Below, piece by piece: positions 2,225-16,473 of a DNA stretch of 64,000 nucleotides; positions within the stretch are counted from its first letter, which is position 1, and each line of letters starts with the position of its first letter. A program made the translations under genes and the position numbers. The notes under the pieces were generated by a model, which was not told where the DNA came from, made no database searches, and was given only the letters and a program-made list of their open reading frames with translations. This DNA is from a virus, in the IMG/VR virus record IMGVR_UViG_3300004463_000262, positions 8,440 to 72,439 of that record; one strand, given 5' to 3'.

Positions 2225-2353
2225 CTTTGAGACAACCGGGGCGAATGAGCCTAAGGTAGGCGTATGCCGAGGCGCGACTTATACTGCGAGCAGGATTCTA
2301 ATATCCTGCCCCTAAGTTGTCTCAATTATCGTACTGTTAATGTGTAGGATGCA

Positions 2354-2638
2354 ATGGCACTTTCATACGGAGATAACTTCTATGACAGCGGCCCTTACGG
2401 AGGGTTTTATCTACCTATGGCAACAGAGTCGGTAGTACAGCAACGCGGAGTAGAGTATACTGATACGGCTGATATCCCGAGATGGGCTATCCAGTCGTCT
2501 GGTGCTTCACCCGCTTATCCTGCACAGACACGAACCTACACCGTTCAAACCAGGAATTGGGATCAGATTGCCGATCCTAGTGGCGCTGGCTTTCAAGCTA
2601 CGCTTGCCTCCTGGACACGAACCGAACTACACAATTAA
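2354..2638 (+). CDS. hypothetical protein
   Basis: ATG ORF with upstream AGGA, coding-like composition. Confidence 0.6.
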   Translation: MALSYGDNFYDSGPYGGFYLPMATESVVQQRGVEYTDTADIPRWAIQSSGASPAYPAQTRTYTVQTRNWDQIADPSGAGFQATLASWTRTELHN

Positions 2639-2647
2639 GAGGTTTCA

Positions 2648-3268
2648 ATGGCTGGTAAGAGAAAGTTTGACGACAAAGCAACGTGGCGCAATGATCAGTG
2701 GGGAATTGATCAGGATCAGCCTGCACGTGCAGAGAAGATTTTTGATCCTGCTGACACTGTGACTGATGATCCTACTGCCGGTGGTATTGGTGGAGGTACA
2801 TCCTTCTCTAGAAGTCCGGTTCAGATGACTGGTACGATGTATACCGGCCTGAATGATAATCCTACCGCAATGGTGGATCAAGCGTATCGTCTTGGTGACA
2901 CGCTTCTAGGAAACACCTACGCCTCTCTAACAACTGATTTAACCGGTGATGACAATGATCTTGTTTTCACTGCTAATGCTAGAGGCTCAGGTGGCAATGC
3001 GATCACCGTAGAGTATGTTGATCCGGCTGACACAGATCAGTCATTAGACGTGAGTGTTACAGATCTTGCTATCGTGGTAAGTCTTGCTACGGATAGTGGT
3101 GGTATCATTACTACTGTGGCTGATGATATTTCTGCTGCGATTGGTTTGGACACAGAGGCGAATGCTCTTGTCTCTGTAGAAGATGCTGCTAGCAATGATG
3201 GTTCTGGCCTCGTTACAGCGATGGATGAGACGAATTTGTCTGGTGGATCTGACGCTCATTACGCATAA
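2648..3268 (+). CDS. probable virion structural protein (acidic, Thr/Gly-rich)
   Basis: C-terminal DLVFTA…GNAITVEY…TNLSGG segment of a type seen in phage structural proteins; GAGG RBS. Confidence 0.55.
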   Translation: MAGKRKFDDKATWRNDQWGIDQDQPARAEKIFDPADTVTDDPTAGGIGGGTSFSRSPVQMTGTMYTGLNDNPTAMVDQAYRLGDTLLGNTYASLTTDLTGDDNDLVFTANARGSGGNAITVEYVDPADTDQSLDVSVTDLAIVVSLATDSGGIITTVADDISAAIGLDTEANALVSVEDAASNDGSGLVTAMDETNLSGGSDAHYA

Positions 3269-3272
3269 ATAC

Positions 3273-3301
3273 TTGACATAGCCCTCCCTTTTTGATATAA
3301 T
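3273..3301 (+). promoter_or_regulatory. consensus sigma70 promoter
   Basis: TTGACA-17-TATAAT. Confidence 0.85.
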
Positions 3302-3337
3302 ACCTGTACAAGGTAATCAAGGAAAGGATTAGGGATC

Positions 3338-3688
3338 ATGGCACTTACAGCAGCGGAGCGCGAAACGGTCATCAGCATCAGCGACGATGAGAACGAGTGG
3401 ACGATCCATACGTCTCAGCGCAAGATGGTCACGCAGCTTCTCAAGAATCCGTCCGCGACGATCCTGGAGGATACGACTTTCCAGGGTACGCGCATGCTGG
3501 TCGCGACGGTTCCTGCCAACGGTATTACCGTCCGCAAGGGCAAGGGTACGCCTCGTAAGGTAGCTGGTCGTGCCCCTCGTAACATCGATGCCCCGACGTG
3601 CGGCGGTGTCAAGTCTGATGGTAGTAAGTGTGGTATGGTCGCCAAGAACGGTAGTGGGTTTTGCCGTCACCATCAGGATCAGAAGTAA
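3338..3688 (+). CDS. hypothetical protein with C-terminal C3H zinc finger
   Basis: TCGGVKSDGSKC…FCRHH. Confidence 0.7.
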   Translation: MALTAAERETVISISDDENEWTIHTSQRKMVTQLLKNPSATILEDTTFQGTRMLVATVPANGITVRKGKGTPRKVAGRAPRNIDAPTCGGVKSDGSKCGMVAKNGSGFCRHHQDQK

Positions 3689-3794
3689 TCACGTTTCTCT
3701 GGAGAGGGCACCGTTCGGTCATATCCTCCAACAATTAAGGGGGTGTGGTTAGTAGCAGGAAGAGGGAGCGGTGCCCTCGCAGGGGAACATTTTA

Positions 3795-3868
3795 GGCTCC
3801 ATAGCTTAGTTTGGTAGAGCAGGGGACTCTTAATCCCAAGGTCGAAGGTTCGAATCCTTCTGGGGTCA
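3795..3868 (+). tRNA. tRNA-Lys(CTT)
   Basis: gggga-ctcttaa-tccca. Confidence 0.9.
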
Positions 3869-3979
3869 TAGGCGGTGCTATCGTTGTTGGTAATCATTCC
3901 ATTGCCCTCGAAGCCGGGGACTTCTGTGATAGCAATTCTAGATCCGCAGGCTTCCTTATTTGTAAACAATCAAGGGGAT

Positions 3980-4351
3980 GTTTTGAAGTTAATCATCGCA
4001 AGTATCTGTGTCTTAATGACACTCTTACTCCCGGATGTATCGAACGCAAACATCGCAACAACAAAGAAAGCAATCATCTGGGCATTTTGTGGTCACTCAT
4101 ACAAGCCGTGTTGGTTAGGACGAGAGGCCATCAAGGTATCGGACTGTGAAACAGGCGGTACCTTTTCTATTTGGGCAGGCGTTGGTAAGCATGACTATTG
4201 GGGTCTTTTCCAAATGGGATCATCAGAAAGAGAGACATGGGGATACGGCAATGATCCCTGGGAACAGGCACGTTCAGCCTATCGCATGTATATGGCGACT
4301 CGTTACGAGGATCGTTCTGATAGATGGAGTCGTTGGGATTGCAAGCCTTAA
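3980..4351 (+). CDS. secreted lysozyme-like (Rpf/SLT-type) transglycosylase
   Basis: Hydrophobic signal-like N-terminus, CETGG, YWGLFQM, W.RWDC motifs; start approximate (track 3875). Confidence 0.65.
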   Translation, partial: VLKLIIASICVLMTLLLPDVSNANIATTKKAIIWAFCGHSYKPCWLGREAIKVSDCETGGTFSIWAGVGKHDYWGLFQMGSSERETWGYGNDPWEQARSAYRMYMATRYEDRSDRWSRWDCKP

Positions 4352-4434
4352 GTCGATATGCTGGAATCTGGTAGACAGGCACGGTTGAGAGCCGTGTGCA
4401 GTAATGCGTCCGAGTTCGACTCTCGGTATCGACA
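4352..4434 (+). tRNA. tRNA-Leu(GAG)
   Basis: cacgg-ttgagag-ccgtg, long variable arm. Confidence 0.9.
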
Positions 4435-4489
4435 TGTTTGACCACCTATAAAGGCAACATCTCATCCTAAATAGGTAGGTGATATACAT

Positions 4490-4606
4490 ATGAGTGCAGC
4501 AGTTTTCATTGTACTAGTACTATTACTAGCTCTATTACTTGGAGTTGGAGTCAATTTCTGGTTCTTCTTGCTTCTTCTGCTCCTACTCCTGCTGTTCTTC
4601 CTTTAA
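4490..4606 (+). CDS. 38-aa Leu-rich membrane peptide (below ORF-track cutoff)
   Basis: AGGTAGGTG RBS then MSAAVFIVLVLLLALLLGVGVNFWFFL…FFL*. Confidence 0.6.
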   Translation: MSAAVFIVLVLLLALLLGVGVNFWFFLLLLLLLLLFFL

Positions 4607-4693
4607 GAACAGTTCGATCCTCTGTGGAGGCGCGATGACAGTCGGGAAAGACCGGCACCCCGTATAAGCCCGAGGGTACATATCGGGCACCAT

Positions 4694-4765
4694 TCCACTG
4701 TAGCTCAGCGGTAGAGCGGTTGGTTGAAGCCCAGCGCGTCGGCGGTTCGATTCCGTCCGGTGGAA
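4694..4765 (+). tRNA. tRNA-Phe(GAA)
   Basis: gttgg-ttgaagc-ccagc. Confidence 0.88.
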
Positions 4766-5102
4766 CCTAGAGCGAGAGGTTACAACCCTAGGATGCTTAG
4801 GGGACGACAGTCGTTGAGCATCAAACGTTCTGTTAATATGCTTGCTCTTATTTTTGTAGTCAAAGACCCTTGGAAACTCGTGCTGGAGACTTTTCTCTTA
4901 TCAGGGATTGCATACGAGGCAGAGCAAAGTTCAAGGCGAGACGAAATGGGCGCCGAAGCGCCCAGATTTTGTAATCGAAGACCCTAGAAACTCTTTGGTT
5001 CTTGTGGAGAGAGAGTTTAGTCTCAGTGAAGCATCCTAAGGAGCAAGTCTAGGCGAGATGAAATTGCGGTCAAACAGTATACTATCGGCCGCAAGATTTT
5101 AC

Positions 5103-5177
5103 GTCCCGTTGGTCTAGTTGGTTTAGGACGCGGCCCTCTCACGGCTGAGGTCATCGGTTCGAATCCGATACGGGATA
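5103..5177 (+). tRNA. tRNA-Glu(CTC)
   Basis: cggcc-ctctcac-ggctg. Confidence 0.9.
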
Positions 5178-5179
5178 CT

Positions 5180-5504
5180 ATGGCTTACAAAGATCCAGAA
5201 AAACAGAAAGTTGCTCAACGTGAATGGTATGAGCGGAATGATATTTGCAGAAAGCGACGTGAACGTAAGAAAAGCATCCAGCGATTCTTACGTGCAGTTA
5301 AAGTAACTGCTGGGTGTCGAGATTGTGGATATGATGCGCATGCAGTGGCATTAGACTTTGATCATCGAGATGATGAAGAGAAGAAGTTCTTTTCGATCTT
5401 CTGAATTAGGTGCTCATGGTTGGAAAGCTATTGTCGAAGAAGTCATGAAATGCGATGTTCGATGCGCAAATTGTCATCGCGTTAGACATTCCGATGTCGT
5501 CTAA
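5180..5504 (+). pseudogene. frameshifted HNH endonuclease
   Basis: MAYKD…CRDCG…LDFDH stops at 5404; another frame continues ELGAHGWK…KCDVRCANCHRVRH to TAA 5504 inside tRNA-Asn. Confidence 0.75.
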
Positions 5505-5560
5505 TGGTAAGGCGCGTGGCTGTTAACCACGCTATCAAGGTTCGAATCCTTGCGTCGGAG
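5490..5560 (+). tRNA. tRNA-Asn(GTT)
   Basis: cgtgg-ctgttaa-ccacg. Confidence 0.9.
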
Positions 5561-5931
5561 CTACACAATACGATTGGGCCGACACAATCGTGCCATATGT
5601 GGTGTAATGATCGGCAATTGTATGAATACAATCATGAGGATAACACTAATGTAAATGCTATTTCAGCATTAGGGGTTAAATGATTGGGGAGTGTGTGTAC
5701 CGAAGAGGAAGCTGCTAGAGGCCGGAAACGACTAGCAGGGATCAAGTCCGATGACCAGTCAGCTTGATGAATCCCCTGTGACAAGCGAAAGCCGTAGCCG
5801 AGGCCAATCTTTCGACTGTAGTTAACACATGGATTAAATCACACTTTATTGTGAAGTTTGTTATATTTTAAGCTTTAGGGGATGCGCATCTTACACGCAT
5901 ATATTTGGTTAGTTACCCAAGAACAGCGTAG

Positions 5932-6021
5932 AGTTGGGAACGGATTCTTGGTGAAATAGATAAATGTGAACTTCTTTGTGCCAATTGCCATCGCAAGGAA
6001 GAAATTAAGGAAATATGCTAG
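5932..6021 (+). pseudogene. C-terminal remnant of HNH endonuclease
   Basis: SWERILGEIDKCELLCANCHRKEE…*, in-frame stop just upstream, stop lies within tRNA-Ser. Confidence 0.7.
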
Positions 6022-6095
6022 AGTGGCTGAATAGGCTCGCCTGCTAAGCGAGTGTGTCTTAACCGGCACCGAAGGTTCGAATCCTTCTATTTCCG
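6009..6095 (+). tRNA. tRNA-Ser(GCT)
   Basis: ctcgc-ctgctaa-gcgag, long variable arm. Confidence 0.9.
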
Positions 6096-6098
6096 TAT

Positions 6099-6143
6099 GG
6101 TTAGGGTCGAGAGGCCGCGTGAGTTCGAATCTCACACTAACCG
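6099..6143 (+). ncRNA. mini tRNA-like RNA (acceptor + variable arm + T arm only)
   Basis: ggttag/ctaacc stem, gtcgagaggc hairpin, gtgag-ttcgaat-ctcac T arm. Confidence 0.5.
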
Positions 6144-6265
6144 TAGTCGGTTGAAGCCTAGGTTCGCCGTGGGATAAGACTGATGAACGAAGGAATCGCA
6201 GCACGAGGTCGTGCCCCGGCTTTACGGGAGGCTATGGTATCCGATCCCATAGGTGATTCTAACTA

Positions 6266-6347
6266 GGAATGTGTCCGGGTGGTGAGGACGCTGCCTTGAA
6301 AGCAGTCGCGTCGAGAGGCGTTGCAGGTTCGAATCCTGTGCATTCCG
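6266..6347 (+). tRNA. tRNA-Ser(TGA)
   Basis: gctgc-cttgaaa-gcagt, long variable arm. Confidence 0.85.
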
Positions 6348-6349
6348 TA

Positions 6350-6425
6350 CCCGTGCGTATGAGGTTCAAGTCCTCATCATCAGGATATCCTAGGCTGATG
6401 TAGCTTAACTGGCAGAGCGAGCGGG
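6350..6425 (+). ncRNA. circularly permuted tRNA-like RNA (YrlA/Y-RNA topology)
   Basis: Order cccgt - T arm - catcag loop ctgatg - D arm - gcggg. Confidence 0.6.
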
Positions 6426-6532
6426 CGTTATTTGTAGGGCAATGGATAGCGGGCCGGACTAGTTGACTCGCTACTCCATCCCTACTGCGCACACATCAAA
6501 TCCCGAATGATCCCCTCCGTAATCATTGGAAG

Positions 6533-6850
6533 GTGATTACAATGGTAGATAGATCGCAGGGAGAACCGGGTAAGCCCGGACAACCGGCTGTCGGCCCGAC
6601 CGGTGGTAGGGGCGGCGAAGGTGGTCGTGGTGGCGAAGGAACAGAGATTGGCGGTGCTGGTGGTGTCGGCGGCGAAGGTGGCGCTGTCTATGTCAGAGAT
6701 TCAGTCGAAGACATTAGACAGAGACTAGCTGAAGCTGGTTCTCAGATCCGAAAGCATGCTGATGCTGCACAGTCTGAGCTAGACGCACTCAAACTTGTTG
6801 TTGAAGAGATTGACGCAAGAGTCAAGGTTCTAGAAGATCTACAGATTTAG
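6533..6850 (+). CDS. Gly-rich repeat plus coiled-coil protein
   Basis: GEPGKPGQP / GGxGGx repeats then heptad-like C-terminus. Confidence 0.7.
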   Translation: MITMVDRSQGEPGKPGQPAVGPTGGRGGEGGRGGEGTEIGGAGGVGGEGGAVYVRDSVEDIRQRLAEAGSQIRKHADAAQSELDALKLVVEEIDARVKVLEDLQI

Positions 6851-6935
6851 GAAACGTGGCGAAATTGGTAGCCGCGCTCGCCTGGAAAGCGGGTTGGGTT
6901 GATAGCCCTTGGAGGTTCAAGTCCTCTCGTTTCCG
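6850..6935 (+). tRNA. tRNA-Ser(GGA)
   Basis: ctcgc-ctggaaa-gcggg. Confidence 0.88.
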
Positions 6936-7019
6936 TAACGAGTGTAATCCGTAGAGTCGGCTGTGGAGGTCATGGCCCACGGGCGCAGGAGAGGTTCATT
7001 ACCTAACACTCGTATTCTT

Positions 7020-7101
7020 GGAAGATATCCGAATGGTTAGGGAACCGCTTCGAAAGCGGCTGCGTCGAAAGGCGTTGAGGGTTCGAGTCCCTTGTCTTCC
7101 G
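7020..7101 (+). tRNA. tRNA-Ser(CGA)
   Basis: ccgc-ttcgaaa-gcgg, long variable arm. Confidence 0.85.
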
Positions 7102-7237
7102 TAATGGCAGTAGTCTATGACCTACGTAAGCTGCTGCAAGTCCATGCCTCTTGATCGTAGGCCACTGAGGGTGGACGAATCTTATCGGCTAGGTCATGGC
7201 GACCCTAAGAAACCATGACCTACCAACTTAAACTAGT

Positions 7238-7570
7238 ATGGCTCTACAAGGACAAGCTAAACTGGATTACATGCGTGATTACCAGAAGCGAAATCGTGAG
7301 AGATTACTGGTTGAGAAGAAGAAGCGTCGTGAAGAACAGCGACGTTTTATTCAAGTAGCAAAATCAAAACCATGTGCAGATTGCGGAATTCAGTATAGTA
7401 CCTGGGTGATGGATTTCGATCATGTCCGTGGCGAGAAACGATACAATCTCAACAGACTAACTAAGATGTCTGCTTCTTGGCAGACAATCATAGATGAAAT
7501 TGCTAAGTGCGATGTGGTCTGTTCGAATTGTCATCGAGAACGAGAACATAAACGAAGGGGTATCGGTTAA
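7238..7570 (+). CDS. HNH endonuclease
   Basis: CADCG…MDFDH…CDVVCSNCHR. Confidence 0.85.
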   Translation: MALQGQAKLDYMRDYQKRNRERLLVEKKKRREEQRRFIQVAKSKPCADCGIQYSTWVMDFDHVRGEKRYNLNRLTKMSASWQTIIDEIAKCDVVCSNCHREREHKRRGIG

Positions 7571-7626
7571 CGGTAAACCAACGGATTCCAAACCCGTGAC
7601 TGCGAGTTCGACTCTTGCTACCCCTG
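7556..7626 (+). tRNA. tRNA-Trp(CCA)
   Basis: acgga-ttccaaa-cccgt. Confidence 0.85.
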
Positions 7627-7724
7627 TAGGTGGGCCAATGAACGCATAGAGGGTTGAAATCACCCCGCTCGGCAAGATATTGTTCTGGCGAAATAAATTG
7701 GTAAGAAGGATGGAGCGCCCTTCC

Positions 7725-7800
7725 GCACTGGAGGCAGACATAAGGTTAACGCGCCACTCTTATAAGGTGGAAAGAGAAGGTTCGATTCCTTCCCGGTGCA
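7725..7800 (+). tRNA. tRNA-Ile(TAT)
   Basis: ccact-cttataa-ggtgg; T arm gaagg-ttcgatt-ccttc; atypical D arm. Confidence 0.7.
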
Positions 7801-7821
7801 TATCTGTGCTATAATGCATCC

Positions 7822-8340
7822 ATGCGTGAGAAAGCATGGCAGGAGTACTTCAGATCAGGGGACACAGAACCGCTGATCAAGGCGTATTGGGATTCTATTC
7901 AATACATGGCGTGGGATTTCAATGAGCGTAATCAGGACGATTTATTCCAGGTAGGATTGCTCGGACTAATCAAGGCGGCGAAGACCGTCGATGTCAAGCG
8001 CGTGAGATCTCTAGACGCTTGGGTGTTTTTGAACGTCCGAGGCGCTATGAGGAATCTCCGACGATTCAAGCAGGATTACTCCCTTGATATCCTCTACGAT
8101 ATCACTACAGATGAGGATAGTTTGGAGCGTCGTATTGATCTGAAGATCGCATTGGAGACTAGATCTATCGAAAAGGCTAGAGGGTATCTGCAAGGATACG
8201 AGCCGATGCGAGGAAACCCAGATGACAGCATAGAGAGATATCATCGCGGCAAGATCTCACTAAGAGCCTTGTCCGATGAATTAGGAATTAGTAAGAGGCA
8301 GACTTACAAGCTTCTCGGTAAGCTGCCAGATAGTTGGTAA
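7822..8340 (+). CDS. sigma-70 family factor (region 2 plus C-terminal HTH)
   Basis: QDDLFQVGLLGLIKAA region-2 motif; ISLRALSDELGISKRQTY HTH. Confidence 0.7.
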   Translation: MREKAWQEYFRSGDTEPLIKAYWDSIQYMAWDFNERNQDDLFQVGLLGLIKAAKTVDVKRVRSLDAWVFLNVRGAMRNLRRFKQDYSLDILYDITTDEDSLERRIDLKIALETRSIEKARGYLQGYEPMRGNPDDSIERYHRGKISLRALSDELGISKRQTYKLLGKLPDSW

Positions 8341-8346
8341 AGATAC

Positions 8347-8419
8347 ACACCGGTAGCTCAGGGGTTAGAGCACCGCTCTGATACGGCGGGTGTCGGTAGT
8401 TCGATTCTACCTCGGTGTA
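8347..8419 (+). tRNA. tRNA-Ile(GAT)
   Basis: ccgct-ctgatac-ggcgg. Confidence 0.88.
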
Positions 8420-8448
8420 CTTTCTTGTGAAGACCAAAGGAACGTCTT

Positions 8449-8533
8449 CGGTATGTGGCGAAATTGGTAGCCGCATCCGGCTGGAAACCGGACAGCACTT
8501 TGTGCTTTGCGGGTTCGACTCCCGTCATACTTA
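8449..8533 (+). tRNA. second tRNA with GGA anticodon (Ser-like, atypical acceptor end)
   Basis: tccgg-ctggaaa-ccgga, long variable arm, unpaired first base pair. Confidence 0.65.
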
Positions 8534-8893
8534 ACAGCGTATAGTCTTTGAGAGCAAGAAAAGATATCACTGATGATAATGCTTTGTGCGCATCGGTGAA
8601 GACTCGTGAACAACCTGCTGATTGGGTTAGAGACTAACGAAGATCAGGGAAACGACTGTATGAAAGCGCCCACGACATGTTCGTGTTCGGCCAAGGCGGT
8701 ATATACTTGCTAAGTTCTCATTAGAGGGCCGTTATTCATCCGAGGCGGCGCCTCATGACTAGAAAGCTTAAGATCCTTTCGGTGATGAGCGTAGGATGGG
8801 CCACTTAGCGAAGGATGTAATCGCGTTGGGATTTGCAGCGAAAGTTCTTGTAGTTGCTCAGCTAATTCAACCAGTAAGGCACAGCGAGTCCAA

Positions 8894-9198
8894 GGGGATG
8901 TATTGGTTTCGACGTGGAACTGATGTATCAACTGCGATCCGTGTTGATCAGGCACGTAAAAGGATCAATCAAATAGAAGCAAACGCCATTAAGAGCGTAT
9001 CGGCATGGCTTCGCGGTTCAGTCCGCCAGCCTGCCTTGGTTGCAGCATAACCAGGAAACCTAATATGCTGAGACAGTCGGGAAAGACCGGCACGTAAGTT
9101 GCAATATCCGTTGTAAGTTGCTACACTTTACGTAGCTATGATCGTAGTAAGTTGGTACTTAGGTTGTACGGACGCCGGTTCGAGTCCGGCCATCTCCA
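8894..9198 (+). ncRNA. ssrA: tmRNA
   Basis: 5' GGGGATG…GGTTTCGAC, 3' GGACGCCGGTTCGAGTCCGGCCATCTCCA; internal tag ANAIKSVSAWLRGSVRQPALVAA*. Confidence 0.92.
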
Positions 9199-9220
9199 TA
9201 TAACGTGACAGGAAGGAAAC

Positions 9221-9421
9221 ATGGCTAGATTGAGCAAGGTATATGTGGCTTTCTTCCACGACAAGGGAAAGCGTTCTTTCGCGACAGAGAAGATTGCTGC
9301 CCGTAATTACGAAGCGGCTATGGAAGTGGCCGAGACATGGGCGATCAGCAAGTATCATGGTCGTGTAAAGGAAATCAAGATCGAGAAGTCCAAAGGAGAG
9401 ATTCTACTTGGCGACGATTAA
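9221..9421 (+). CDS. hypothetical protein
   Basis: AGGAAGGA RBS, ATG, overlaps rpsL start. Confidence 0.65.
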
Positions 9422-9800
9422 TCAGTTGGTCAGAAAGGGCAGGAGCAAGCCGAAGCCGAAGAGCAAGGCACCGGCTCTGGACGCCAATCCGCAACTACGT
9501 GGAACCGTTGTCCGCACGATGGCTCTTGATCCGAAGAAGCCTAACTCTGCGAAGCGTCATTGTTGTCGCGTCAGGCTATCGAACGGCAAAGAAGTGAACG
9601 CATACGTCCCTGGTCGTGGGATGAACATCCAGGAGCATCACTCGGTGCTCATTCGTGGTGGTCGAGTCCCGGATCTACCTGGGGTTCGCTACAAGGTCAT
9701 CCGAGGCACGATGGATTGCCAGGGTGTCTCCGATGAAGAGGGTAACGTTCCTCGCAGGCAGAGTCGTTCGAAGTACGGAGTGAAGAAGAACGTCAAATGA
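9408..9800 (+). CDS. rpsL: ribosomal protein S12 (divergent)
   Basis: [12 protein letters not shown]…PKKPNSA…[13 protein letters not shown]…RSKYGVK. Confidence 0.95.
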
Positions 9801-9976
9801 GTGAGCATTTCCATCAAGACGAAGAAGGTATCTGGCACAAGTGTTACCATAAGTCTCGTGGTTTGCTTACCAATTTGCAGTTCTGGATAGGACTCACTCT
9901 AGGTTTTCCTGTTGAGCATTTGCTCTGGGAAAAGGTTTGGCCCTTCTACCATCTCACAAGATGGTGGGGTCTATAG
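9797..9976 (+). CDS. 59-aa Trp/His-rich small protein
   Basis: ATGA overlap with rpsL stop; [18 protein letters not shown]…WWGL*. Confidence 0.6.
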
Positions 9977-10064
9977 CAACGTACCGGGTGTCATAAAGTG
10001 GCATCAGTTCTGGAAAATCCAACCAGAGGCGGACATTAGTTTTGCTGGGCGAATGGGTAAACTA

Positions 10065-10135
10065 GGTACCTTGGCCGAGTGGTTAGGTATGAGGCTGCAA
10101 CCCTCATTATGTCGGTTCGATTCCGACAGGTACCT
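10065..10135 (+). tRNA. tRNA-Cys(GCA), second copy
   Basis: tgagg-ctgcaac-cctca, U73. Confidence 0.9.
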
Positions 10136-10275
10136 CTGCACCACTCTATTCCTTGTTTGAATAGGGTCTATTGAACGCTCGTCCCGACGCGACTGCCATC
10201 GTTAGAGGGAGCAGCAAGCTGAGTTTGGCAGAACTAACAGGTAATATCGGTACGAATCCGAAGCGTTCAAATTTT

Positions 10276-10357
10276 GCCCCCTTGCTGGAATTGGCATACA
10301 GGAGCGGCTTAAACCCGCTTGCCGCAAGGCTTCAGGGTTCGAGTCCCTGAGGGGGTA
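10276..10357 (+). tRNA. tRNA-Leu(TAA)
   Basis: agcgg-cttaaac-ccgct. Confidence 0.9.
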
Positions 10358-10467
10358 TTATGTACAAGTTATATCTCTGGATAATATCCAGAAGAATTAG
10401 ATCAAGAAGATTAGAGCGACTATTACAATCCTATTTAGGAAAGAGATGGCGCTTAGGTAAGTTATAA

Positions 10468-10542
10468 GCCCGCTTAGCAGAATTGGTATATGCACTGCTC
10501 TCAAAAAGCAGGATTTTCTGAGTTCGAATCTCAGAGCGGGTA
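10468..10542 (+). tRNA. tRNA-Leu(CAA), short variable arm
   Basis: ctgct-ctcaaaa-agcag. Confidence 0.85.
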
Positions 10543-10665
10543 CTTACCCACGAGTCTAGTAACATCTACCCCTAGGGCCATGAACAGGCGAGTCCGTGGT
10601 TTACTAGTGATCGGCGGTAGAACGTCTAGGGGCGTTCGAGATGTTGTTGGTGAGCGTGGGTTTAC

Positions 10666-10739
10666 GGCCGTATAGCTCAATCAGGCAGAGCAAGGGACTT
10701 TTAATCCTTAGGTTGTGGGTTCGATTCCTACTGCGGTCA
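10666..10739 (+). tRNA. tRNA-Lys(TTT)
   Basis: aggga-cttttaa-tcctt. Confidence 0.9.
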
Positions 10740-10767
10740 ACGAAGGGTTCATATTCTATACTCTAAT

Positions 10768-11220
10768 ATGAACCTTATCTATTACAGAATAGATAGAATG
10801 CCATATAAAGATCCTATTAGACAGAAACAAGCACAACGTGAATCCTATCTTAGGAACAAAGAGAAAGTTTTGGGAGTAAGGGTCAGGGCGATTCAAAGGA
10901 ATAAAGAATATGTCTTGAATTATTTGCTGAACAATCCTTGTGTTGATTGCGGAGAAGATGATCCAGTCGTGTTAGAGTTTGATCATCTACGAGATAAATC
11001 TTGGAATGTTTCTGCTCTAATAAAGAGAACATATTCTACTGATCGTATACAGGAAGAGATTGAGAAATGCGAAGTAGTCTGTGCAAACTGTCATCGAAGA
11101 CGAGAAGCAGTTAAAGGTAATCATTTTCGCCTCATTAGCTCAGTGGACAGAGCACGAGCCTTCGACACTAGAAATTTGTTCGAATCAAACAAGAGACTAT
11201 ATGATGGATACGCTTGGTAG
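10768..11220 (+). CDS. HNH endonuclease
   Basis: MPYKD (likely start 10798)…CVDCG…LEFDH…[10 protein letters not shown]. Confidence 0.85.
11129..11198 (+). pseudogene. degenerate tRNA-Arg(TCG) inside HNH 3' end
   Basis: D arm tagctcagtggacagagc identical to the next tRNA; broken anticodon and acceptor stems. Confidence 0.6.
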
Positions 11221-11285
11221 CTCAGTGGACAGAGCGGTGCGCTTCGAACGCACGTCAGTCGCGGGTTCGACTCCTGCCCAGGCGA
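11211..11285 (+). tRNA. tRNA-Arg(TCG)
   Basis: gtgcg-cttcgaa-cgcac. Confidence 0.88.
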
Positions 11286-11317
11286 TGAAGATGAGTCCTT
11301 CCAGGGGTATATGTGGT

Positions 11318-11448
11318 CTGATCAGGTTAGGATGTTGGCCTAGAAGTAGCCATCATTTAAAGAGTGGGCGATGGCGGCGGCGGTGCGGCGGGCCGCATCA
11401 TTTGGGTGGTCGTCGGTAAGCGTATTAGCGAAAGCCTTTGAGAATCAG
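11318..11448 (+). ncRNA. 23S rRNA H43/H44 (L11-binding, GTPase-associated centre)-like RNA with insertion
   Basis: AGGATGTTGGCCTAGAAGTAGCCATCATTTAAAGAGTG … GCGTATTAGC. Confidence 0.7.
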
Positions 11449-11548
11449 AAGAATGCCACGGTCGGAGGACATGGATTCTGTGCGATCTGATGAAGACCAA
11501 GGAAACGTCTTTAAGCGTGTAGTCCTTTGGTGTAATAGCACACTATCC

Positions 11549-11577
11549 TTGACAGACACTATGTTTCGTGATACACT
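11549..11577 (+). promoter_or_regulatory. sigma70-type promoter, leaderless
   Basis: TTGACA-17-TACACT, GTG 7 nt downstream. Confidence 0.65.
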
Positions 11578-11584
11578 ACATCCT

Positions 11585-11797
11585 GTGGCACGAAAAAAGA
11601 AAGAAGCCAAAAAGGAAGACGTAAAGTTTGCGAAGTACCTTCCGGGTGAAGCACGTTGGAAGGGTCGAGTGAACAAGACACGTCAAGATCGTTTGGCTAT
11701 TGATGATAGGGATCGCGTACATAACGCAGATCGCGTAAGAAGTTTTTCGCAGAAGCATAAGCCAGCACGTTCGGCGGATTGGCTTAAGTTTCGCTAG
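11585..11797 (+). CDS. small basic protein
   Basis: GTG start after promoter; Lys/Arg-rich. Confidence 0.55.
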   Translation: MARKKKEAKKEDVKFAKYLPGEARWKGRVNKTRQDRLAIDDRDRVHNADRVRSFSQKHKPARSADWLKFR

Positions 11798-11822
11798 AAC
11801 ATTGACAATTTAGGAAGAATTA

Positions 11823-11899
11823 CAGGATGAGGGTGTGCCTGGTTCACCACTCGCCTTGGACGCGAGACATTCTCGTGGGTTCGAATCCCACCATCCTGA
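11823..11899 (+). tRNA. tRNA-Pro(TGG)
   Basis: ctcgc-cttggac-gcgag. Confidence 0.8.
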
Positions 11900-11994
11900 T
11901 CGGGGACTGCTACTGACAAACGACCCAAGGGCTAACCCTAGCGGGCACGTTGGAAACGAGCGGCTGCATGCGCTGACCGCGCAGTTCCTAACTA

Positions 11995-12069
11995 CTAGTT
12001 GTAGGATAGCTTGGTTATTCCACCTGTCTGGGGGACAGGAGATCGGGGGTTCGAATCCCTCCAACTAGA
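11995..12069 (+). tRNA. tRNA-Pro(GGG)
   Basis: cctgt-ctggggg-acagg. Confidence 0.85.
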
Positions 12070-12072
12070 TAA

Positions 12073-12148
12073 CGGAATATGGGAAAGTCTGGTTTAATCC
12101 ACTCGCTTCGGGAGCGAGAGATCGAAGGTTCGAATCCTTCTATTCCGA
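12073..12148 (+). tRNA. tRNA-Pro(CGG)
   Basis: ctcgc-ttcggga-gcgag. Confidence 0.88.
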
Positions 12149-12559
12149 CTGTCGCGGACACGCCGCGCAATCGAAGGTGCGTGTTATAATCAGCCCATTA
12201 AATCCTGGTTGAATGGCCAGTGGGTGTAGGAACGGTGTAACCTACTAAATCCTCCGCTGAAATGCGGGCGCTAGAGAGGTTCTTCGAGCCATTGACCTAG
12301 CGTGTGGTGGAAGCCGTACCTGCCGGATCGGCCATTGCCGGTTCGGGTGAGCCAGGTGGAGGCACGTCTAGTCAACGTGTCGAAAGCGTAGGGCAGCGCG
12401 GCGGTTGCTGGTGGTCGAGGGCGCAGCAACGTATTGACTAAATGGCCTGTCTGTTCGGAGCAGCGGGTACCAGCAGGGGTATGGTGTCAAAACCTGCCCC
12501 TGCTCTAGAGCGACGAGACATTGTTCAGTTACTCCTGATAGATTATCGTCGCTCATCTT

Positions 12560-12630
12560 TCCAAGGTACACTAATGGTAGGTGACGAGACTCTGAATCTC
12601 GTGGTGTTGGTTCGACCCCAGCCCTTGGAG
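12560..12630 (+). tRNA. tRNA-Gln(CTG)
   Basis: cgaga-ctctgaa-tctcg. Confidence 0.85.
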
Positions 12631-12808
12631 CTAAGGCACATGGTAGGTACTCTTGGCCTTTAGGAGTAATAAGCCTGCCAACTATGCTCCCTGCGCACCG
12701 CCCAATTTACAGGCGGGAGGTGGGGGAGCGCCACTCCCCGGAGGCGATCACTTCAAATCTGGGGAGCCAAGGCCAGGGTGCGATCACTTGTCAATCTCTG
12801 GTCGCCAA

Positions 12809-12891
12809 GGGAGTATTACCTAAGTGGACAACAGGTTCCGGCTGTAACCCGGATGCTTCTAGCTTCGGAGGTTCGAATCCTTCTGCTCCCA
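12809..12891 (+). tRNA. tRNA-Tyr(GTA)
   Basis: tccgg-ctgtaac-ccgga, long variable arm. Confidence 0.9.
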
Positions 12892-12957
12892 TCGTCACAC
12901 AGCGGCACCAAGGCCATGCTCGCGAGCAAGCCAAGTGATCGTAACGTGTGACACCTT

Positions 12958-13029
12958 TCCGGGATCGTCTAATGGTAGTGACCTTGGACTTTGAATCCAA
13001 TGATCTAGGTTCGAATCCTAGTCCCGGAG
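12958..13029 (+). tRNA. tRNA-Gln(TTG)
   Basis: ttgga-ctttgaa-tccaa. Confidence 0.9.
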
Positions 13030-13180
13030 CTATGGACTATCCGGTTCATATCACCCTAAATCTTGCAAGTGTGATATGAGTAGTCGATCTGTCGTATTTC
13101 CATGGTTACGCGGCAGGGAGTGTGGGTTCGATTCCCTAAACCGCCATAGTGCGGGGACTGGCGAGATAGTTCCAGATTTT

Positions 13181-13253
13181 GGCCCGTTAGTTCAGCGGTT
13201 AGAGCGCCTGCCTGTCGAGCAGGATGTCACCAGTTCGAATCTGGTACGGGTCG
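13181..13253 (+). tRNA. tRNA-Asp(GTC)
   Basis: cctgc-ctgtcga-gcagg. Confidence 0.88.
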
Positions 13254-13348
13254 TATGGTGCGCTAGGGGGAGTACTACCCCTAGCAGGGAGGTAGCTCGA
13301 AAGAGAGAGTTCATTCGCCGTGGTGAAGGGCGGGATGACAACAACATT

Positions 13349-13423
13349 GGAGTGGTAGTTCAATTCGGTTAGAGCACTGCCCTGTCACGGCAGAAGTTGC
13401 GGGTTCGAGTCCCGTCCATTCCG
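13349..13423 (+). tRNA. tRNA-Asp(GTC), second copy
   Basis: ctgcc-ctgtcac-ggcag. Confidence 0.9.
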
Positions 13424-13641
13424 TAGTCATAGCCCTGCACGCCACGAGGGGTAGATAGTGAGTCTGGTCGGACTCCCGTTTGAGGGTAGATACAGGCTTT
13501 AAACAGTTAGGTACCATCGCGAGTAACGGCTTTCGTTCTATGACTCAGGAGAGGGATTGCAGAGGCACGGTATATGCCCCTTCTAGGACTTCACCGTGAG
13601 TAATACGCCTGGGTTTGGCGCAAGACAGATTCAGGCTCCAT

Positions 13642-13715
13642 ATCAGAGTCGTCTAATGGTCAAGGACTTCAGACTTTCAATCTGAACAATGCGGGTTCGA
13701 CTCCCGTCTCTGATA
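13642..13715 (+). tRNA. tRNA-Glu(TTC)
   Basis: tcaga-ctttcaa-tctga. Confidence 0.88.
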
Positions 13716-13718
13716 CTA

Positions 13719-13792
13719 CAGGAGTTAGCATAATTGGTTAATGCCCCAGACTGTGAATCTGGACGATTTGGGTTCGAATCCCCTGCTCCTGA
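13719..13792 (+). tRNA. tRNA-His(GTG)
   Basis: ccaga-ctgtgaa-tctgg; no encoded G-1. Confidence 0.75.
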
Positions 13793-13795
13793 TAC

Positions 13796-13870
13796 CCTTT
13801 GGTAGCTCAATGGCAGAGCACTGCGCTGTAAGGAACGCAGAGGTTGCGAGTTCGATTCTCGTCCTTAGGT
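13796..13870 (+). tRNA. tRNA-like gene with 10-nt anticodon loop (identity undetermined)
   Basis: ctgcg-ctgtaaggaa-cgcag; canonical D and T arms; two U:U acceptor mismatches. Confidence 0.55.
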
Positions 13871-13874
13871 CTTC

Positions 13875-13946
13875 GCCGAAATAGCTCAGCGGTAGAGCAC
13901 CTGTTTTGTAAGCAGGGTGTCCAGAGTTCGATTCTCTGTTTCGGCT
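13875..13946 (+). tRNA. tRNA-Thr(TGT)
   Basis: cctgt-tttgtaa-gcagg. Confidence 0.9.
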
Positions 13947-14050
13947 TACGCCAGTGGATCAAGTAGATAGCACGAAGCCTTATCTTCGAGTAGATCCTCC
14001 TAAGAATAATCAGTCCAGTAAAATACGTTGGGCTAAAGATTACGAGCTTC

Positions 14051-14123
14051 GCCTGCTTGGTGCTAACGGATAGCATACTGCTTTGGTATAGCAGGGGAGA
14101 CAGTTCGATTCTGTCAGTGGGCT
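14051..14123 (+). tRNA. tRNA-Thr(GGT)
   Basis: ctgct-ttggtat-agcag. Confidence 0.8.
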
Positions 14124-14242
14124 TATGGAAGGGGTCTTGGGTTCGAATCCCAAAGTTAGCTTTGCGCTTATCAGACGTAGCAGACGCCGCACGGATAGCG
14201 TAACCGTGTCCTGATCGTGGGTCAGGTTATCTCCCACGCCAC

Positions 14243-14314
14243 GCTAATCAGGTGTTTCAGGTGGCACACGTCTTTCGTAAGGACGGAGACAGAGTTCGAT
14301 TCTCTGGATTAGCT
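14243..14314 (+). tRNA. tRNA-Thr(CGT)
   Basis: cgtct-ttcgtaa-ggacg. Confidence 0.82.
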
Positions 14315-14317
14315 TAC

Positions 14318-14390
14318 AGACTCATAGCTCAGATGGGAGAGCGCTTCCTTGACGTGGAAGAGGTCACAGGTTCGATCCCTGTTGGGTCTA
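14318..14390 (+). tRNA. tRNA-Val(GAC)
   Basis: cttcc-ttgacgt-ggaag. Confidence 0.9.
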
Positions 14391-14473
14391 TTGGGTAAGA
14401 CTACAGAGCCGTGTGCAGCACGGTAAGGCAGCTAGCACTTGTCTTCCCACCATTTTATGGTATACTGTACTCA

Positions 14474-14731
14474 ATGTGTGAGAAGAGAGAGAAGTTGATC
14501 AAGGAGATTGCCGAGGCAATCAAGCAGGCCGACCTTGAGATGGAACGTCGTCAAGATCTGTTCCATCAAGATTGGGATTGGCAGTTTGAGCAGAGAGCCG
14601 AAGCCGCATTACGTGTAATCGAGCGCAAGGCTGACGTAACTCAAGATAGGATTCTTCCTTGCACTTGTGGTCATAATGGATATGGAGCACATAAAGAAGG
14701 GTGCGCGTTATATGAACAAAGCAGACTATGA
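14474..14731 (+). CDS. hypothetical protein with C-terminal CxCxH…H..C motif
   Basis: ATG 7 nt after TATACT; track ORF starts 14411. Confidence 0.6.
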   Translation: MCEKREKLIKEIAEAIKQADLEMERRQDLFHQDWDWQFEQRAEAALRVIERKADVTQDRILPCTCGHNGYGAHKEGCALYEQSRL

Positions 14732-15089
14732 ATATAAAGCCGGTTATGCTTGTGGTTTTTGGGCCGACGAATTGATCGAAGCGAAAAGGAGAGGATATTC
14801 TTCTTTTCATTATAATCCTGATACTCTTCGGGGAGATCCTAAGTTTGAAATGGGTCGTGCAGATGGCATCGGGGATCGTGAACTAGTTGATGTAGAAAAT
14901 GATGACTCCTTTTTCTTCGCTTTTGATCAGAGCGGTTTTCCGTGGGGGAGCCATATAGAACAGGAGTTCAAAAGGCGAGGATATGAGTTTGAATACCTAG
15001 ATATTTACGGCAAAGTCATCAAAGAACGTCCCGCTCCTATAAAATCCTTATTGCAGTCTTATCGTCTCGTCAAACCAAAGCAGGTATAG
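14712..15089 (+). CDS. RMF-like motif protein
   Basis: YKAGYACG…FEMGRADGIGD. Confidence 0.6.
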   Translation: MNKADYEYKAGYACGFWADELIEAKRRGYSSFHYNPDTLRGDPKFEMGRADGIGDRELVDVENDDSFFFAFDQSGFPWGSHIEQEFKRRGYEFEYLDIYGKVIKERPAPIKSLLQSYRLVKPKQV

Positions 15090-15173
15090 TGGCGGCAATC
15101 GTATTTCCGCAAACCTCGTATATTACCTCCGGGGCACGTAGGGATCAGGGAAGTGGGTTGACCTACAAACTAA

Positions 15174-15247
15174 GCAATAGTAGCTCAGACTGGTAGAGCG
15201 TCACCTTGCCAAGGTGAAAGTCGAGGGTTCGAGTCCTTCTTTGTCTG
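15174..15247 (+). pseudogene. tRNA-Gly(GCC) with replaced 3' acceptor strand
   Basis: Intact D, anticodon (tcacc-ttgccaa-ggtga) and T arms, but the 3' strand does not pair with gcaatag. Confidence 0.7.
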
Positions 15248-15272
15248 GGACTCCTACCTCGTAATAACTGAG

Positions 15273-15638
15273 ATGGCATACAAAGACAAAGAGAAGCAGA
15301 GAGAAGCATCCCTCGCCTCTTATCATCGTAGAAGAAAGAGTGATATAGAGAGAATGAGGCTCGTTAAGAATGAAGCAAAGAAGCGTAGGCGCAAAGAGAA
15401 TTCTGAGTACGTCAACGCTCTGAAAGCGCAACCTTGTGTGGATTGTGGGAATTGTTATCTACCATGTGTGATGGATTTTGATCATGTTCGTGGTGAGAAA
15501 ACTAAGAACATCGCTTTCATGTTAATCAACGATACTTCTCTCGAAAAAATTAAAGAGGAAATTGAGAAGTGCGAATTGGTATGCTCAAATTGTCATCGAA
15601 TTCGCACGCATCAGCGCAGATATAGTGCCAATGGTTAG
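15273..15638 (+). CDS. HNH endonuclease
   Basis: MAYKD…CVDCG…MDFDH…CELVCSNCHR. Confidence 0.85.
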   Translation: MAYKDKEKQREASLASYHRRRKSDIERMRLVKNEAKKRRRKENSEYVNALKAQPCVDCGNCYLPCVMDFDHVRGEKTKNIAFMLINDTSLEKIKEEIEKCELVCSNCHRIRTHQRRYSANG

Positions 15639-15688
15639 CATACCAGATTGCCATTCTGGTGGTACGAGTTCGAATCTCGTTATCTGCT
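15616..15688 (+). tRNA. tRNA-Gly(GCC)
   Basis: ccaga-ttgccat-tctgg, U73. Confidence 0.85.
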
Positions 15689-15786
15689 TGAAGACTATTG
15701 ATAGAGACTAGAAACTCTAGGGTGCAAGTCCCTGGCTCTCCCATAGCTCTGTGTAGGTTATGGGTACACAGTGATAGTCTTCTCCA

Positions 15787-15859
15787 GCACCTATGATGTT
15801 AATGGTTAGCATCTCAGACTTCCAATCTGATCGTGTCGGTTCGAGTCCGACTAGGTGCT
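15787..15859 (+). tRNA. tRNA-Gly(TCC)
   Basis: tcaga-cttccaa-tctga. Confidence 0.9.
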
Positions 15860-15865
15860 CTGAAC

Positions 15866-15938
15866 GTCCTAGTAGCTCAGTGGATAGAGTGCCACCCTGC
15901 GAAGGTGGAAGTCGTTGGTTCGAGTCCAACTTAGGACG
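15866..15938 (+). tRNA. tRNA-Arg(GCG)
   Basis: ccacc-ctgcgaa-ggtgg; A20 in D loop. Confidence 0.85.
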
Positions 15939-16354
15939 CTAGAACAGGGACATACGCAGCACCCGTTGATCCATGCGTCGTGGGTAACTCCCCGGCCGAA
16001 AATTGGGCGTCTTCACGGCGCAGAGATGAGCGGGTGTTGAGGAACTTCAGGACTACTGAACCGCGTGGTGCCAAGAGAGCGCGGGGAGCGTTTAGACGAT
16101 GAGGGAGATGGCCGGTTAGCCGGTAATGCCCGTAATGATGTGTAGGGCTGATAGCGTGAGCGGGAGCCATCGCGTACCTCTAAGCGGACGATATGTAGCG
16201 ATTCCAAGTTCGTCCTGAGCACACAGGACAAGGTAGGGAGCAGCCACTTTATCGAGACGGGTGGCCATTGGTCGAAAGCCCTTCAACGGACGTGAGGGTA
16301 GAGGGCTGAAAACCCCACGCTGACCAGTGAGATAGATGTATGTCATCTTGTTAC

Positions 16355-16383
16355 TTGACAAGACACAGAATCCTGGGTATACT
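16355..16383 (+). promoter_or_regulatory. sigma70-type promoter
   Basis: TTGACA-17-TATACT. Confidence 0.75.
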
Positions 16384-16398
16384 GTTCTAGATACACAA

Positions 16399-16471
16399 AC
16401 CTCCGTAGCTCAGCGGTCAGAGCGCTGGCCTCATAAGCCAGATGTCGTCGGTTCGAATCCAACCGGAGGGA
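16399..16471 (+). tRNA. tRNA(CAT), Met or Ile2
   Basis: ctggc-ctcataa-gccag. Confidence 0.8.
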
Positions 16472-16473
16472 AT

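Follow-up and report, generated by a model that had tools for sequence, protein, structure and literature searches.

Phages of a lineage with genomes of roughly 160 kb appear to have long kept a gene of their own for the ribosomal protein uS12, a gene that would descend from a wider family of large-phage S12s and that carries fixed replacements at residues of the streptomycin pocket and the decoding site. It was identified in a 64,000-nucleotide stretch of virus DNA, hereafter the window, covering positions 8,440 to 72,439 of IMG/VR record IMGVR_UViG_3300004463_000262 (G000; 72,439 bp, CheckV completeness 45). The proposal that newly made 30S subunits incorporate the phage protein, which there reshapes the streptomycin pocket and the decoding site, stands, in our judgement, in even balance.

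The predicted protein belongs to the uS12 family. It matches PF00164 (Ribosom_S12_S23; E 5.6e-32, 110.2 bits against a cut-off of 22.3) over residues 18-113, which correspond to profile positions 2-101 of 110, and its residues 1-127 align with positions 1-121 of E. coli-type S12 structures in the PDB (phmmer, E 1.7e-42 to 5.6e-42), the single gap being a six-residue insertion, EEGNVP, in the phage protein. Compared with cellular uS12, the E. coli 30S protein, it is about 60% identical over residues 1-127, alike in family and length, and has in common the N-terminal tail, the KPNSA loop, His77, Asp89 and the C-terminal RSKYG. The start assignment is considered right because the N-terminus matches that of homologues. 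The alignment is gapless before residue 108, and residues are therefore numbered here as in E. coli S12 with Met1 included; older papers employ mature-protein numbering, one less (K42, K87, D88, P90), and both schemes occur in PMC9456066. The cellular consensus fails at Lys88 (mature K87, an rRNA contact at the streptomycin pocket), so that among the sites of streptomycin-resistance type (K42, K87 or P90) the equivalent of K87 is Pro. Asp89, the presumptive target of beta-methylthiolation by RimO, is retained. A first-pass annotation, made from the letters of the window, had proposed a complete S12 amid phage ORFs and without rpsG or fusA, changed at the K87/88 accuracy and streptomycin residue and keeping the RimO-target Asp. 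The 130-residue length, the Pfam score and the end-to-end alignment with solved S12 bear this out, as do Pro88 and Asp89 in the alignment and the flanks, which consist of a tmRNA, a 66-aa ORF, a 59-aa ORF and tRNA-Cys; all the motifs that it quoted, EEGNVP included, were found in the translation. Its further suggestions, that the protein may retune decoding accuracy or shield the decoding centre, are conjectural.

In contrast to its cellular counterpart, the phage gene lies outside an rpsL-rpsG-fusA operon, within a tRNA/tmRNA island. Directly 3' of it stand the 59-aa ORF and then tRNA-Cys, with no S7 or EF-G gene, and neither family was met among the large ORFs of the window in family searches (the 72-kb record was not searched specifically for S7); that record holds one PF00164 match. 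The surrounding DNA is that of a phage, with DnaB-like, DnaC-like, primase, RNase H, PolIII-alpha, RecA/UvsX, ribonucleotide reductase (RNR) and RtcB genes. Encoding by a bona fide virus is indicated by the terminase, portal and replication genes of the window and by the same gene in a complete relative, G001.

A word-indexed search of 5.8 billion proteins gave 7,999 scored candidates, all at E 0.001 or better, the best 120 of which were examined. Within these, the window protein and 19 metagenomic S12 clusters, 64-77% identical to it against a bacterial background of about 61-67%, constitute a clade whose members differ pairwise by 23-35%. All 20 share the motifs R/V/I-x-P-D-L, G-[RKQ]-G-[MSV]-[ND]-[IV] and NSA-[KNE]-R-[HTK]-[CS]. 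Columns were counted over 281 S12s, comprising the 20 clade members, 10 other phage-type sequences, 8 from Patescibacteria and 243 others. Column 88 is P in 20/20 of the clade, often accompanied by V87T, against K in 206 and R in 24 of the 243. The clade has M at column 72 (17/20; H in 241 of the others), I at column 74 (18/20; L in 242), V at column 34 (19/20; C in 242), C at column 52 (19/20; V in 234) and H or T at column 51 (19/20; K in 240). Column 70 is R, K or Q in every member (E in 172, I in 36 and V in 34 of the others), and column 30 is non-basic in 15/20 (R or K in 238). Invariant throughout the clade are R9, K10, G11, R12, the column P42, K44, P45, N46, S47, A48, H77, D89 and R120-S121-x-Y123-G124, and K43 is kept in 18/20. 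The substitutions are thus fixed across the clade and not random; by position, the parts that bind the ribosome and touch the codon-anticodon helix appear to be kept, and the streptomycin-pocket surface and the 69-74 loop appear to be rebuilt.

These counts qualify several departures stressed in the first-pass annotation. PQLRG in place of PQKRG is present, but residue 30 is already R or K in cells and is a naturally variable site. EEGNVP is likewise present, and an insertion at this site occurs in 20/20 clade members, but the site varies naturally and the insertion is also found in several other S12s, e.g., a Planctomycetes-labelled one. GRGMN in place of GEGHN was read correctly, but the list of clade-specific changes was incomplete, the most specific being C34V, K51H/T, V52C, H72M and L74I; together with K88P and the six-residue insertion, these set the clade apart from cellular uS12. 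The Pro88 departure from consensus is real and rare but not exclusive to phages, as it is the native residue in the str operons of eight Patescibacteria and occurs in certain organelle-like S12s too.

Phylogenetic analysis places the clade among viral genes. All trees omit the window sequence itself (P0001) and three tandem-duplicated chimeric predictions (P0002, P0122, P0123). In a FastTree reconstruction of 277 rows the 20 form one clade with SH-like support of 82. An 80-row set, made up of 32 randomly drawn representatives and every clade, intermediate, named and genome-derived row, gave the same clade in IQ-TREE (quick search, LG+C20) with SH-aLRT 84, inside a 26-row group at 98; upon addition of four S12s from IMG/VR contigs, the group comprised 30 rows (SH-aLRT 83) and the clade received 76. 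Support is moderate because only about 130 alignment columns are available, and the order within the 30-row group is unsure. The 10 non-clade rows of this group are four viral-contig genes and six metagenomic proteins, two of which pair with viral ones: P0124 pairs with viral L045 (support 97) and P0024 with viral L044 (71). The clade therefore appears to be nested among stand-alone S12s of large viral contigs and not among cellular or host S12s; the outcome that the first-pass annotation had named as refuting it, a place among ordinary host S12s, did not occur.

The same evidence bears on the idea that the phage S12 is tuned to the ribosome of an unsequenced host with the same features, adding to or replacing a shut-off host supply while leaving decoding unchanged. 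Pro88 with Thr87 is indeed native in some bacteria (eight Patescibacteria loci), and residue 88 might follow the host, given that Lys88 is retained in other phage S12s. The pattern GGxxPDL[PR]GV[RK]YK, which 20/20 clade members satisfy and which, requiring Tyr-Lys after GV[RK], leaves cellular P88 S12s with Tyr-His uncounted, was run against 185,579 bacterial and archaeal species, each represented by a single genome. Ten loci matched and no clade member was among them: none has M72, I74, V34 or C52, and none comes from Actinomycetota. Eight are Patescibacteria-type S12s with GG[RK][TI]PDLPG, followed by genes recognised by eye as S7 and EF-G, and two are very AT-rich, organelle-like sequences in bins of metagenome-assembled genomes (MAGs). 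The nearest relatives in the trees, by contrast, are S12s on viral contigs, and a signature common to members so far apart in sequence points to descent within phages. Such tuning to the host is accordingly regarded as quite unlikely.

Pro88 itself is rare and arose several times, independently in phages, Patescibacteria and organelle-like S12s. The Patescibacteria proteins (Falkowbacteria, Moraniibacteria and other MAGs) have Thr/Ile87-Pro88-Asp-Leu-Pro-Gly in common with the phage clade but keep C34, TTT39-41, L49, K51, H72 and L74, carry their own N-terminal insertion of 15-17 residues and branch elsewhere in the trees; since both residues and tree positions differ, the origin of Pro88 in the two groups is taken to be independent. 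Their native S12-S7-EF-G operons indicate that Pro88 is compatible with a working ribosome, and Pro88 in these eight S12s also means that the residue is no bar to uS12 membership. Among the 149 cluster representatives that an exhaustive profile search newly listed, three more carry Pro88, and an apparent mitochondrial presequence is present in two of the three; for the phage protein, a protein atlas offered only generic S12 clusters. As a separate observation, the eight Patescibacteria genomes with native Pro88 (L004-L006, L008, L009, L011-L013) may be naturally streptomycin-insensitive or decode differently.

The phage S12 is under purifying selection. According to Nei-Gojobori estimates over five sequences, dN/dS is 0.11-0.19, and thus not relaxed to neutrality, in 5/10 pairs, for which dS is saturated (1.3-3.1); of the other pairs, four had pS beyond the correctable range and one was identical. 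The S12 frame is intact in both the window and G001, in which the portals are 85% and the S12s 66% identical. A decaying passenger gene, acquired by chance and on its way out, would agree with the faster-than-cellular change of this S12 and with the loss of further conserved residues in the G001 copy. It is nevertheless highly improbable, given a frame open in every copy, the dN/dS values, a signature common to 20 diverged members, and the conservation of gene order and overlapping start and stop codons.

The clade signature was met at four loci in JGI metagenomes: L019 duplicates the window, L018 corresponds to contig G001, L016 carries S12 followed by the 59-aa ORF and tRNA-Cys, and L017 carries an RNR fragment, a homologue of the 66-aa ORF and S12. 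G001, of 158 kb and with CheckV completeness 100, encodes 46 tRNAs and a tmRNA in addition to S12, in the order tmRNA, 59-aa ORF, tRNA-Cys, 66-aa ORF, S12. Protein identity between the window and G001 falls from the portal through RNR (80%), terminase (79%) and PolIII (75%) to S12, the 59-aa ORF (54%) and the 66-aa ORF (47%). A more distant relative, G004 (150 kb, 93% complete, 39 tRNAs, portal 50-51% identical), lacks both S12 and the 66-aa ORF; its tmRNA was detected by Rfam (56.7 bits) and missed by ARAGORN.

Scans of IMG/VR revealed S12 genes that likewise stand alone on a further five large viral contigs, of 96-442 kb: G006 (127,888 bp, CheckV 71%), G007 (193,340 bp, 100%), G008 (441,904 bp, 100%), G009 (95,716 bp, 53%) and G011 (117,101 bp, 65%). 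No S7 was found in G006-G009, terminase PHROG matches are present in G007, G008 and G009, and the window portal matches G006, G007 and G008 at 25-26% identity only. Like the gene of the window, all are phage-borne, lie near tRNAs or a tmRNA and fall in the 30-row group. They differ in that G006-G009 keep Lys88, His72 and mostly Leu74, and G011 has Pro88 in a different background (CGGENSNVQEH), close to P0197 (His88). Four small IMG/VR contigs with ordinary bacterial-type S12 were taken as cellular, as an S7-type gene follows in three and the fourth ends just past S12, and a shorter-motif scan returned two chance matches that are not S12. Searching INPHARED by tblastn gave 15 matches, all at 61% identity or less, none of which resembles a clade member. 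Two of these matches fall on chromosomal contigs of Salmonella (515 and 582 kb) that the collection enters as phages, and several short "phage" records carry ordinary bacterial rpsL, which is likely cellular DNA in a phage database.

A tmRNA gene occurs in 6/7 S12-bearing viral records, the exception being the fragment G011. In 4/7 (G000, G001, G007, G009) it shares the strand of S12 and precedes it by about 0.2-0.7 kb; the distance is 14 kb in G008 and about 62 kb in G006; this association is suggestive only, there being no base rate for tmRNA in large phages. In the window, 207 nt separate the tmRNA from the S12 gene downstream of it, both being on the + strand. No SmpB gene was found in the five records tested (G000, G001, G004, G007, G008), and since a tmRNA is present, these phages must rely on host SmpB. 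Reviews, in the parts that concern trans-translation, describe S12 as making no SmpB contact and streptomycin as hardly affecting the process; for lack of such contact, the adjacency of S12 and tmRNA is treated here as co-expression and not as a functional link.

The gene, its family, its location in phage DNA, the fixed changes, the purifying selection and the conserved gene order were read directly from these genomes, while expression, entry into 30S subunits and an effect on accuracy or drug response are what we infer. Under this proposal S12 would be transcribed together with the tmRNA and the tRNA island, its translation would be coupled to the small ORFs on either side, and the product would replace host S12 in 30S subunits assembled during infection. 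No terminator-like site was seen on the + strand between the tmRNA and the end of S12, a weak negative since site counts do not exceed those of shuffled sequence. No RNA run holding window positions 8800-10200 was found among nine listed rows, all of which are DNA labelled rhizosphere metagenome. In such ribosomes the anchoring and decoding parts (N-terminal tail, KPNSA, His77, Asp89) would be kept, and the streptomycin-pocket surface, through K88P, often with V87T, and the loss of K30 and K51, would be rebuilt together with the 69-74 loop. The changed loop may meet the incoming tRNA or EF-Tu. The predicted outcome is an altered dynamics of the decoding site, with "restrictive" or streptomycin-insensitive-like ribosomes that use the phage's own tRNA set.

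In published work, K43-K44-P45 and K88 are placed against helices 18 and 27 of the 16S rRNA, in the streptomycin site (PMC9456066), and Asp89 beside m7G527, in a region associated with movement of the 30S subunit into an "open", hyperaccurate conformation (PMC7550191). A restrictive-like, streptomycin-insensitive site is predicted because the loss of Lys88, Lys30 and Lys51 should weaken contacts. His77 (mature H76), reported to take part in EF-Tu signalling and dityromycin binding (PMC5960728), is kept in the phage S12. Streptomycin resistance (SmR) has been described for K42R and K87R/E, pseudo-dependence for R85C/H and dependence (SmD) for bulky P90 changes including P90R (PMC9456066, PMC3884664), and K42 changes are reported to suppress P90 dependence mutations (PMC3884664). 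Besides P88, the S12 of G001 (L001:6001-6402) has K43C, R86I and P91R, which means that each of the four classical streptomycin-phenotype sites is changed in a single protein; two further clade members carry K43R (P0008) and R86V (P0015). The G001 combination of P90R and K42C, in mature numbering, would be expected of compensatory evolution inside the decoding site, and variation of the clade at these sites fits a protein that may be evolving there. Compared with the SmR, SmD and "restrictive" rpsL alleles (K42, R85, K87, P90), the phage clade is changed at K87 in all members and at K42, R85 and P90 in single ones; the known alleles are single laboratory or clinical mutations of a host gene, whereas those of the clade are ancient, fixed, multiple and phage-borne. 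K87P was not met as a laboratory allele in the rpsL literature consulted.

Part of this evidence can be read differently. The phage S12 might act off the ribosome as an RNA chaperone, folding or processing the long tRNA/tmRNA transcripts or speeding host 30S assembly, without being a stable constituent of the decoding site. uS12 is reported to help splice phage T4 group I introns in vitro and to hasten co-transcriptional folding of 16S rRNA (PMC10931766); the gene lies inside a 16-kb array of 44 tRNAs and a tmRNA, beside RtcB, it evolves at the average pace of a phage gene, and the rRNA-facing lysines K30, K51 and K88 are lost. However, the invariant residues are those of the decoding site (KPNSA, H77, D89), which a generic chaperone does not need, the within-clade variation falls on streptomycin-phenotype sites, and no group I intron was found in the window at Rfam gathering scores. 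This reading is considered unlikely.

An intact anchoring tail combined with an altered functional surface is also the layout of a dominant-negative protein, which raises the possibility of a decoy or saboteur that competes with host S12 in assembly or captures some factor of the host, for example RimO, a GTPase of ribosome assembly, a defence sensor or an A-site toxin, thereby disabling host ribosome production or blunting defence. A precedent is seen in pelagiphage bS21, which in E. coli ribosomes is reported to cut translation to about 5% (PMC6375957), although that result came from a heterologous host. Strict conservation of KPNSA, H77 and D89 is hard to square with a mere blocker, and a phage that carries 44 tRNAs needs translation to stay active; a decoy is therefore improbable.

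Several points weigh against incorporation into 30S subunits, the strongest being the fast evolution of this S12 and its buried, late-assembling nature. The protein evolves at about the average rate of the phage's genes and much faster than cellular S12, and a constraint so much looser than the cellular one could mean that it is no longer a ribosomal component. In the G001 copy, three further near-invariant residues (K43, R86, P91) are lost. Streptomycin sensitivity is dominant in merodiploids, so that a mixed pool of ribosomes would give limited drug protection. The protein may also be co-adapted to an odd host ribosome. uS12 is described as a buried protein that assembles and binds late (PMC10931766), for which reason its replacement would need new 30S assembly during infection; known phage ribosomal proteins, as described in PMC6375957, are mostly loosely bound and exchangeable.

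If the phage S12 does enter the ribosome, the candidate benefits are that decoding could stay accurate when 44 foreign tRNAs flood a host whose base composition differs, that aminoglycosides or A-site toxins met in soil could be tolerated, and that phage tRNAs could be preferred. Streptomyces aminoglycosides are reported to inhibit phages through an early, pre-replication block (PMC9239200), which is given here as context and not as support. It is tempting to speculate, tentatively and with doubt prevailing, that large soil phages build "phage-specialised" ribosomes, in which a decoding-centre protein co-evolved with a near-complete tRNA set and a tmRNA; such ribosomes would decode restrictively, would be unaffected by streptomycin-class drugs or A-site toxins, and might favour phage tRNAs. 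Were this true, the phage S12 family would represent a natural long-term experiment on decoding-site evolution, exploring the K42/R85/K87/P90 network already known from bacterial genetics.

Phage ribosomal proteins as such are already known. Those described for viruses include bS21, bL12, bL9, bL31, bL33, HPF and others (Mizuno et al. 2019, PMC6375957), and the passages that name those of huge phages give S4, S1, S21 and L7/L12 (Al-Shayeb et al. 2020, PMC7162821), S12 not being named there. The main text of PMC6375957 contains neither "S12" nor "uS12", and refers to its supplement for the complete set of 13 proteins. The phage S12 resembles these proteins in being a single gene on a phage genome, under purifying selection and presumed to replace a host protein; it differs in that the ones stressed are peripheral and exchangeable, whereas S12 is buried at the decoding centre. 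By title, abstract or main text no description of a phage-encoded S12 was found in the literature, with the limit that supplements may list one, and no description was found of a phage clade with fixed changes at streptomycin or accuracy residues; PHROGs v4 has no family for the phage S12 at E 1e-5 or better. As S12 sits in and organises the decoding centre, its replacement by a phage would mean that viruses remodel the catalytic heart of host translation and not only its periphery, and would presuppose that ribosomes are still being assembled in the infected cell. Natural variants at residues that control accuracy and the aminoglycoside response are ready to hand in the clade, making the concept of specialised ribosomes made by a virus directly testable.

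The features of the window are listed in Table 1. Rfam found 43 tRNA matches and the tmRNA on the translation island. With the portal as query, tblastn against isolated phages matched 227 records, 223 of which are phages of Mycobacterium/Mycolicibacterium (210), Gordonia (9) and Rhodococcus (4), at 37-42% identity among the matches listed; by this gene the lineage seems to resemble actinobacterial myoviruses. Near-identical DNA was present in listed rhizosphere metagenome runs, 2/9 of which contain half or more of the sampled words. Because of the portal relatives and these runs, a soil actinobacterium is a reasonable guess for the host, and no more.

Table 1. Coordinates of the S12 gene, its landmarks and other features of the window
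Feature	Position	Strand	Basis and remarks
uS12 gene (rpsL-like)	9408..9800	+	130 aa, TTG start, TGA stop; Pfam and structure alignment
Shine-Dalgarno-like AAGGAG	9393..9398	+	9 nt before the TTG of S12; read from sequence, putative function
Decoding loop P42-K43-K44-P45-N46-S47-A48, kept	9531..9551	+	column counts
Loop G69-R70-G71-M72-N73-I74 (ordinary S12: GEGHNL)	9612..9629	+	column counts
Codon CCG (Pro88)	9669..9671	+	K87 site in mature numbering
Insertion EEGNVP (relative to E. coli-type S12)	9732..9749	+	PDB alignments
66-aa ORF	9221..9421	+	stop overlaps S12 start by 14 nt
59-aa Trp-rich ORF	9797..9976	+	ATG overlaps S12 stop (ATGA)
Translation island: 44 tRNA genes and tmRNA, S12 embedded	825..17263	all +	ARAGORN (45 genes)
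tmRNA	8894..9201 (or 9198)	+	ARAGORN, tag ANAIKSVSAWLRGSVRQPALVAA; Rfam RF00023, 114.4 bits
tRNA-Cys	10065-10136	+	ARAGORN; downstream of 59-aa ORF
RtcB-type RNA ligase	17598..18977	+	PHROG 1075, E 4.6e-70; Pfam RtcB, E 1e-56; directly after tRNA island
tRNA-like gene	13796-13871	+	Rfam tRNA, 50.8 bits; ARAGORN, 8-nt anticodon loop, four-base anticodon "taag"
Three paralogous ORFs in tRNA array	7238-7570, 10768-11220, 15273-15638	+	all match G001 111671-112045
172-aa protein in tRNA array	7822-8340	+	sigma-70 region 2, E 3.3e-07
Large terminase	38829-40787		family searches
Portal	43796-45868		family searches

Two small ORFs accompany S12. Homologues of the 66-aa ORF lie directly upstream of S12 in L001 and L017, so that the order 66-aa ORF then S12 is common to these and the window, and two more were found in the protein database. 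None was found in the stretches examined of G006-G009 and of a bacterial-type contig, G010; G011 was not searched. Since the 66-aa ORF and S12 are both present in the window, L001 and L017 and both missing from G004, they behave as one module. The small protein has no Pfam family; its predicted model is a beta-beta-alpha-beta fold (pLDDT 86.6), for which Foldseek found nothing in the PDB at E 0.001 or better. VIA-align gave a best Z of 6.8, to eL20/LX-type ribosomal protein chains, which occupy 9 of the top 18 rows, all this below the tool's noise level of 7-8. A predicted complex of S12 with the 66-aa ORF product scored 0.00 and 0.00, returning no answer. The order S12, 59-aa ORF, tRNA-Cys is found in the window and L016, where the 59-aa ORF adjoins S12; in L001 it lies near S12. 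No family was found for this Trp-rich ORF. It is kept in S12-less G004 (G004:C1:56680-56850) at 60% identity, an unusual degree of conservation compared with core genes (28-35%) and portal (50%).

Other genes of the tRNA array deserve mention. The tRNA-like gene has a fold with an enlarged anticodon loop and could be a quadruplet or frameshift-type decoder, contain a tiny insert, or be degenerate; a quadruplet decoder beside a variant accuracy protein would, if true, be of interest. The three paralogous ORFs, one with a weak HNH match (E 0.0051), are probably homing-endonuclease-like genes that shuffle the tRNA array. The protein with sigma-70 region 2 has a 41%-identical counterpart in the relative (L001:4034-4552), and an IMPDH-like protein is also encoded by this phage.

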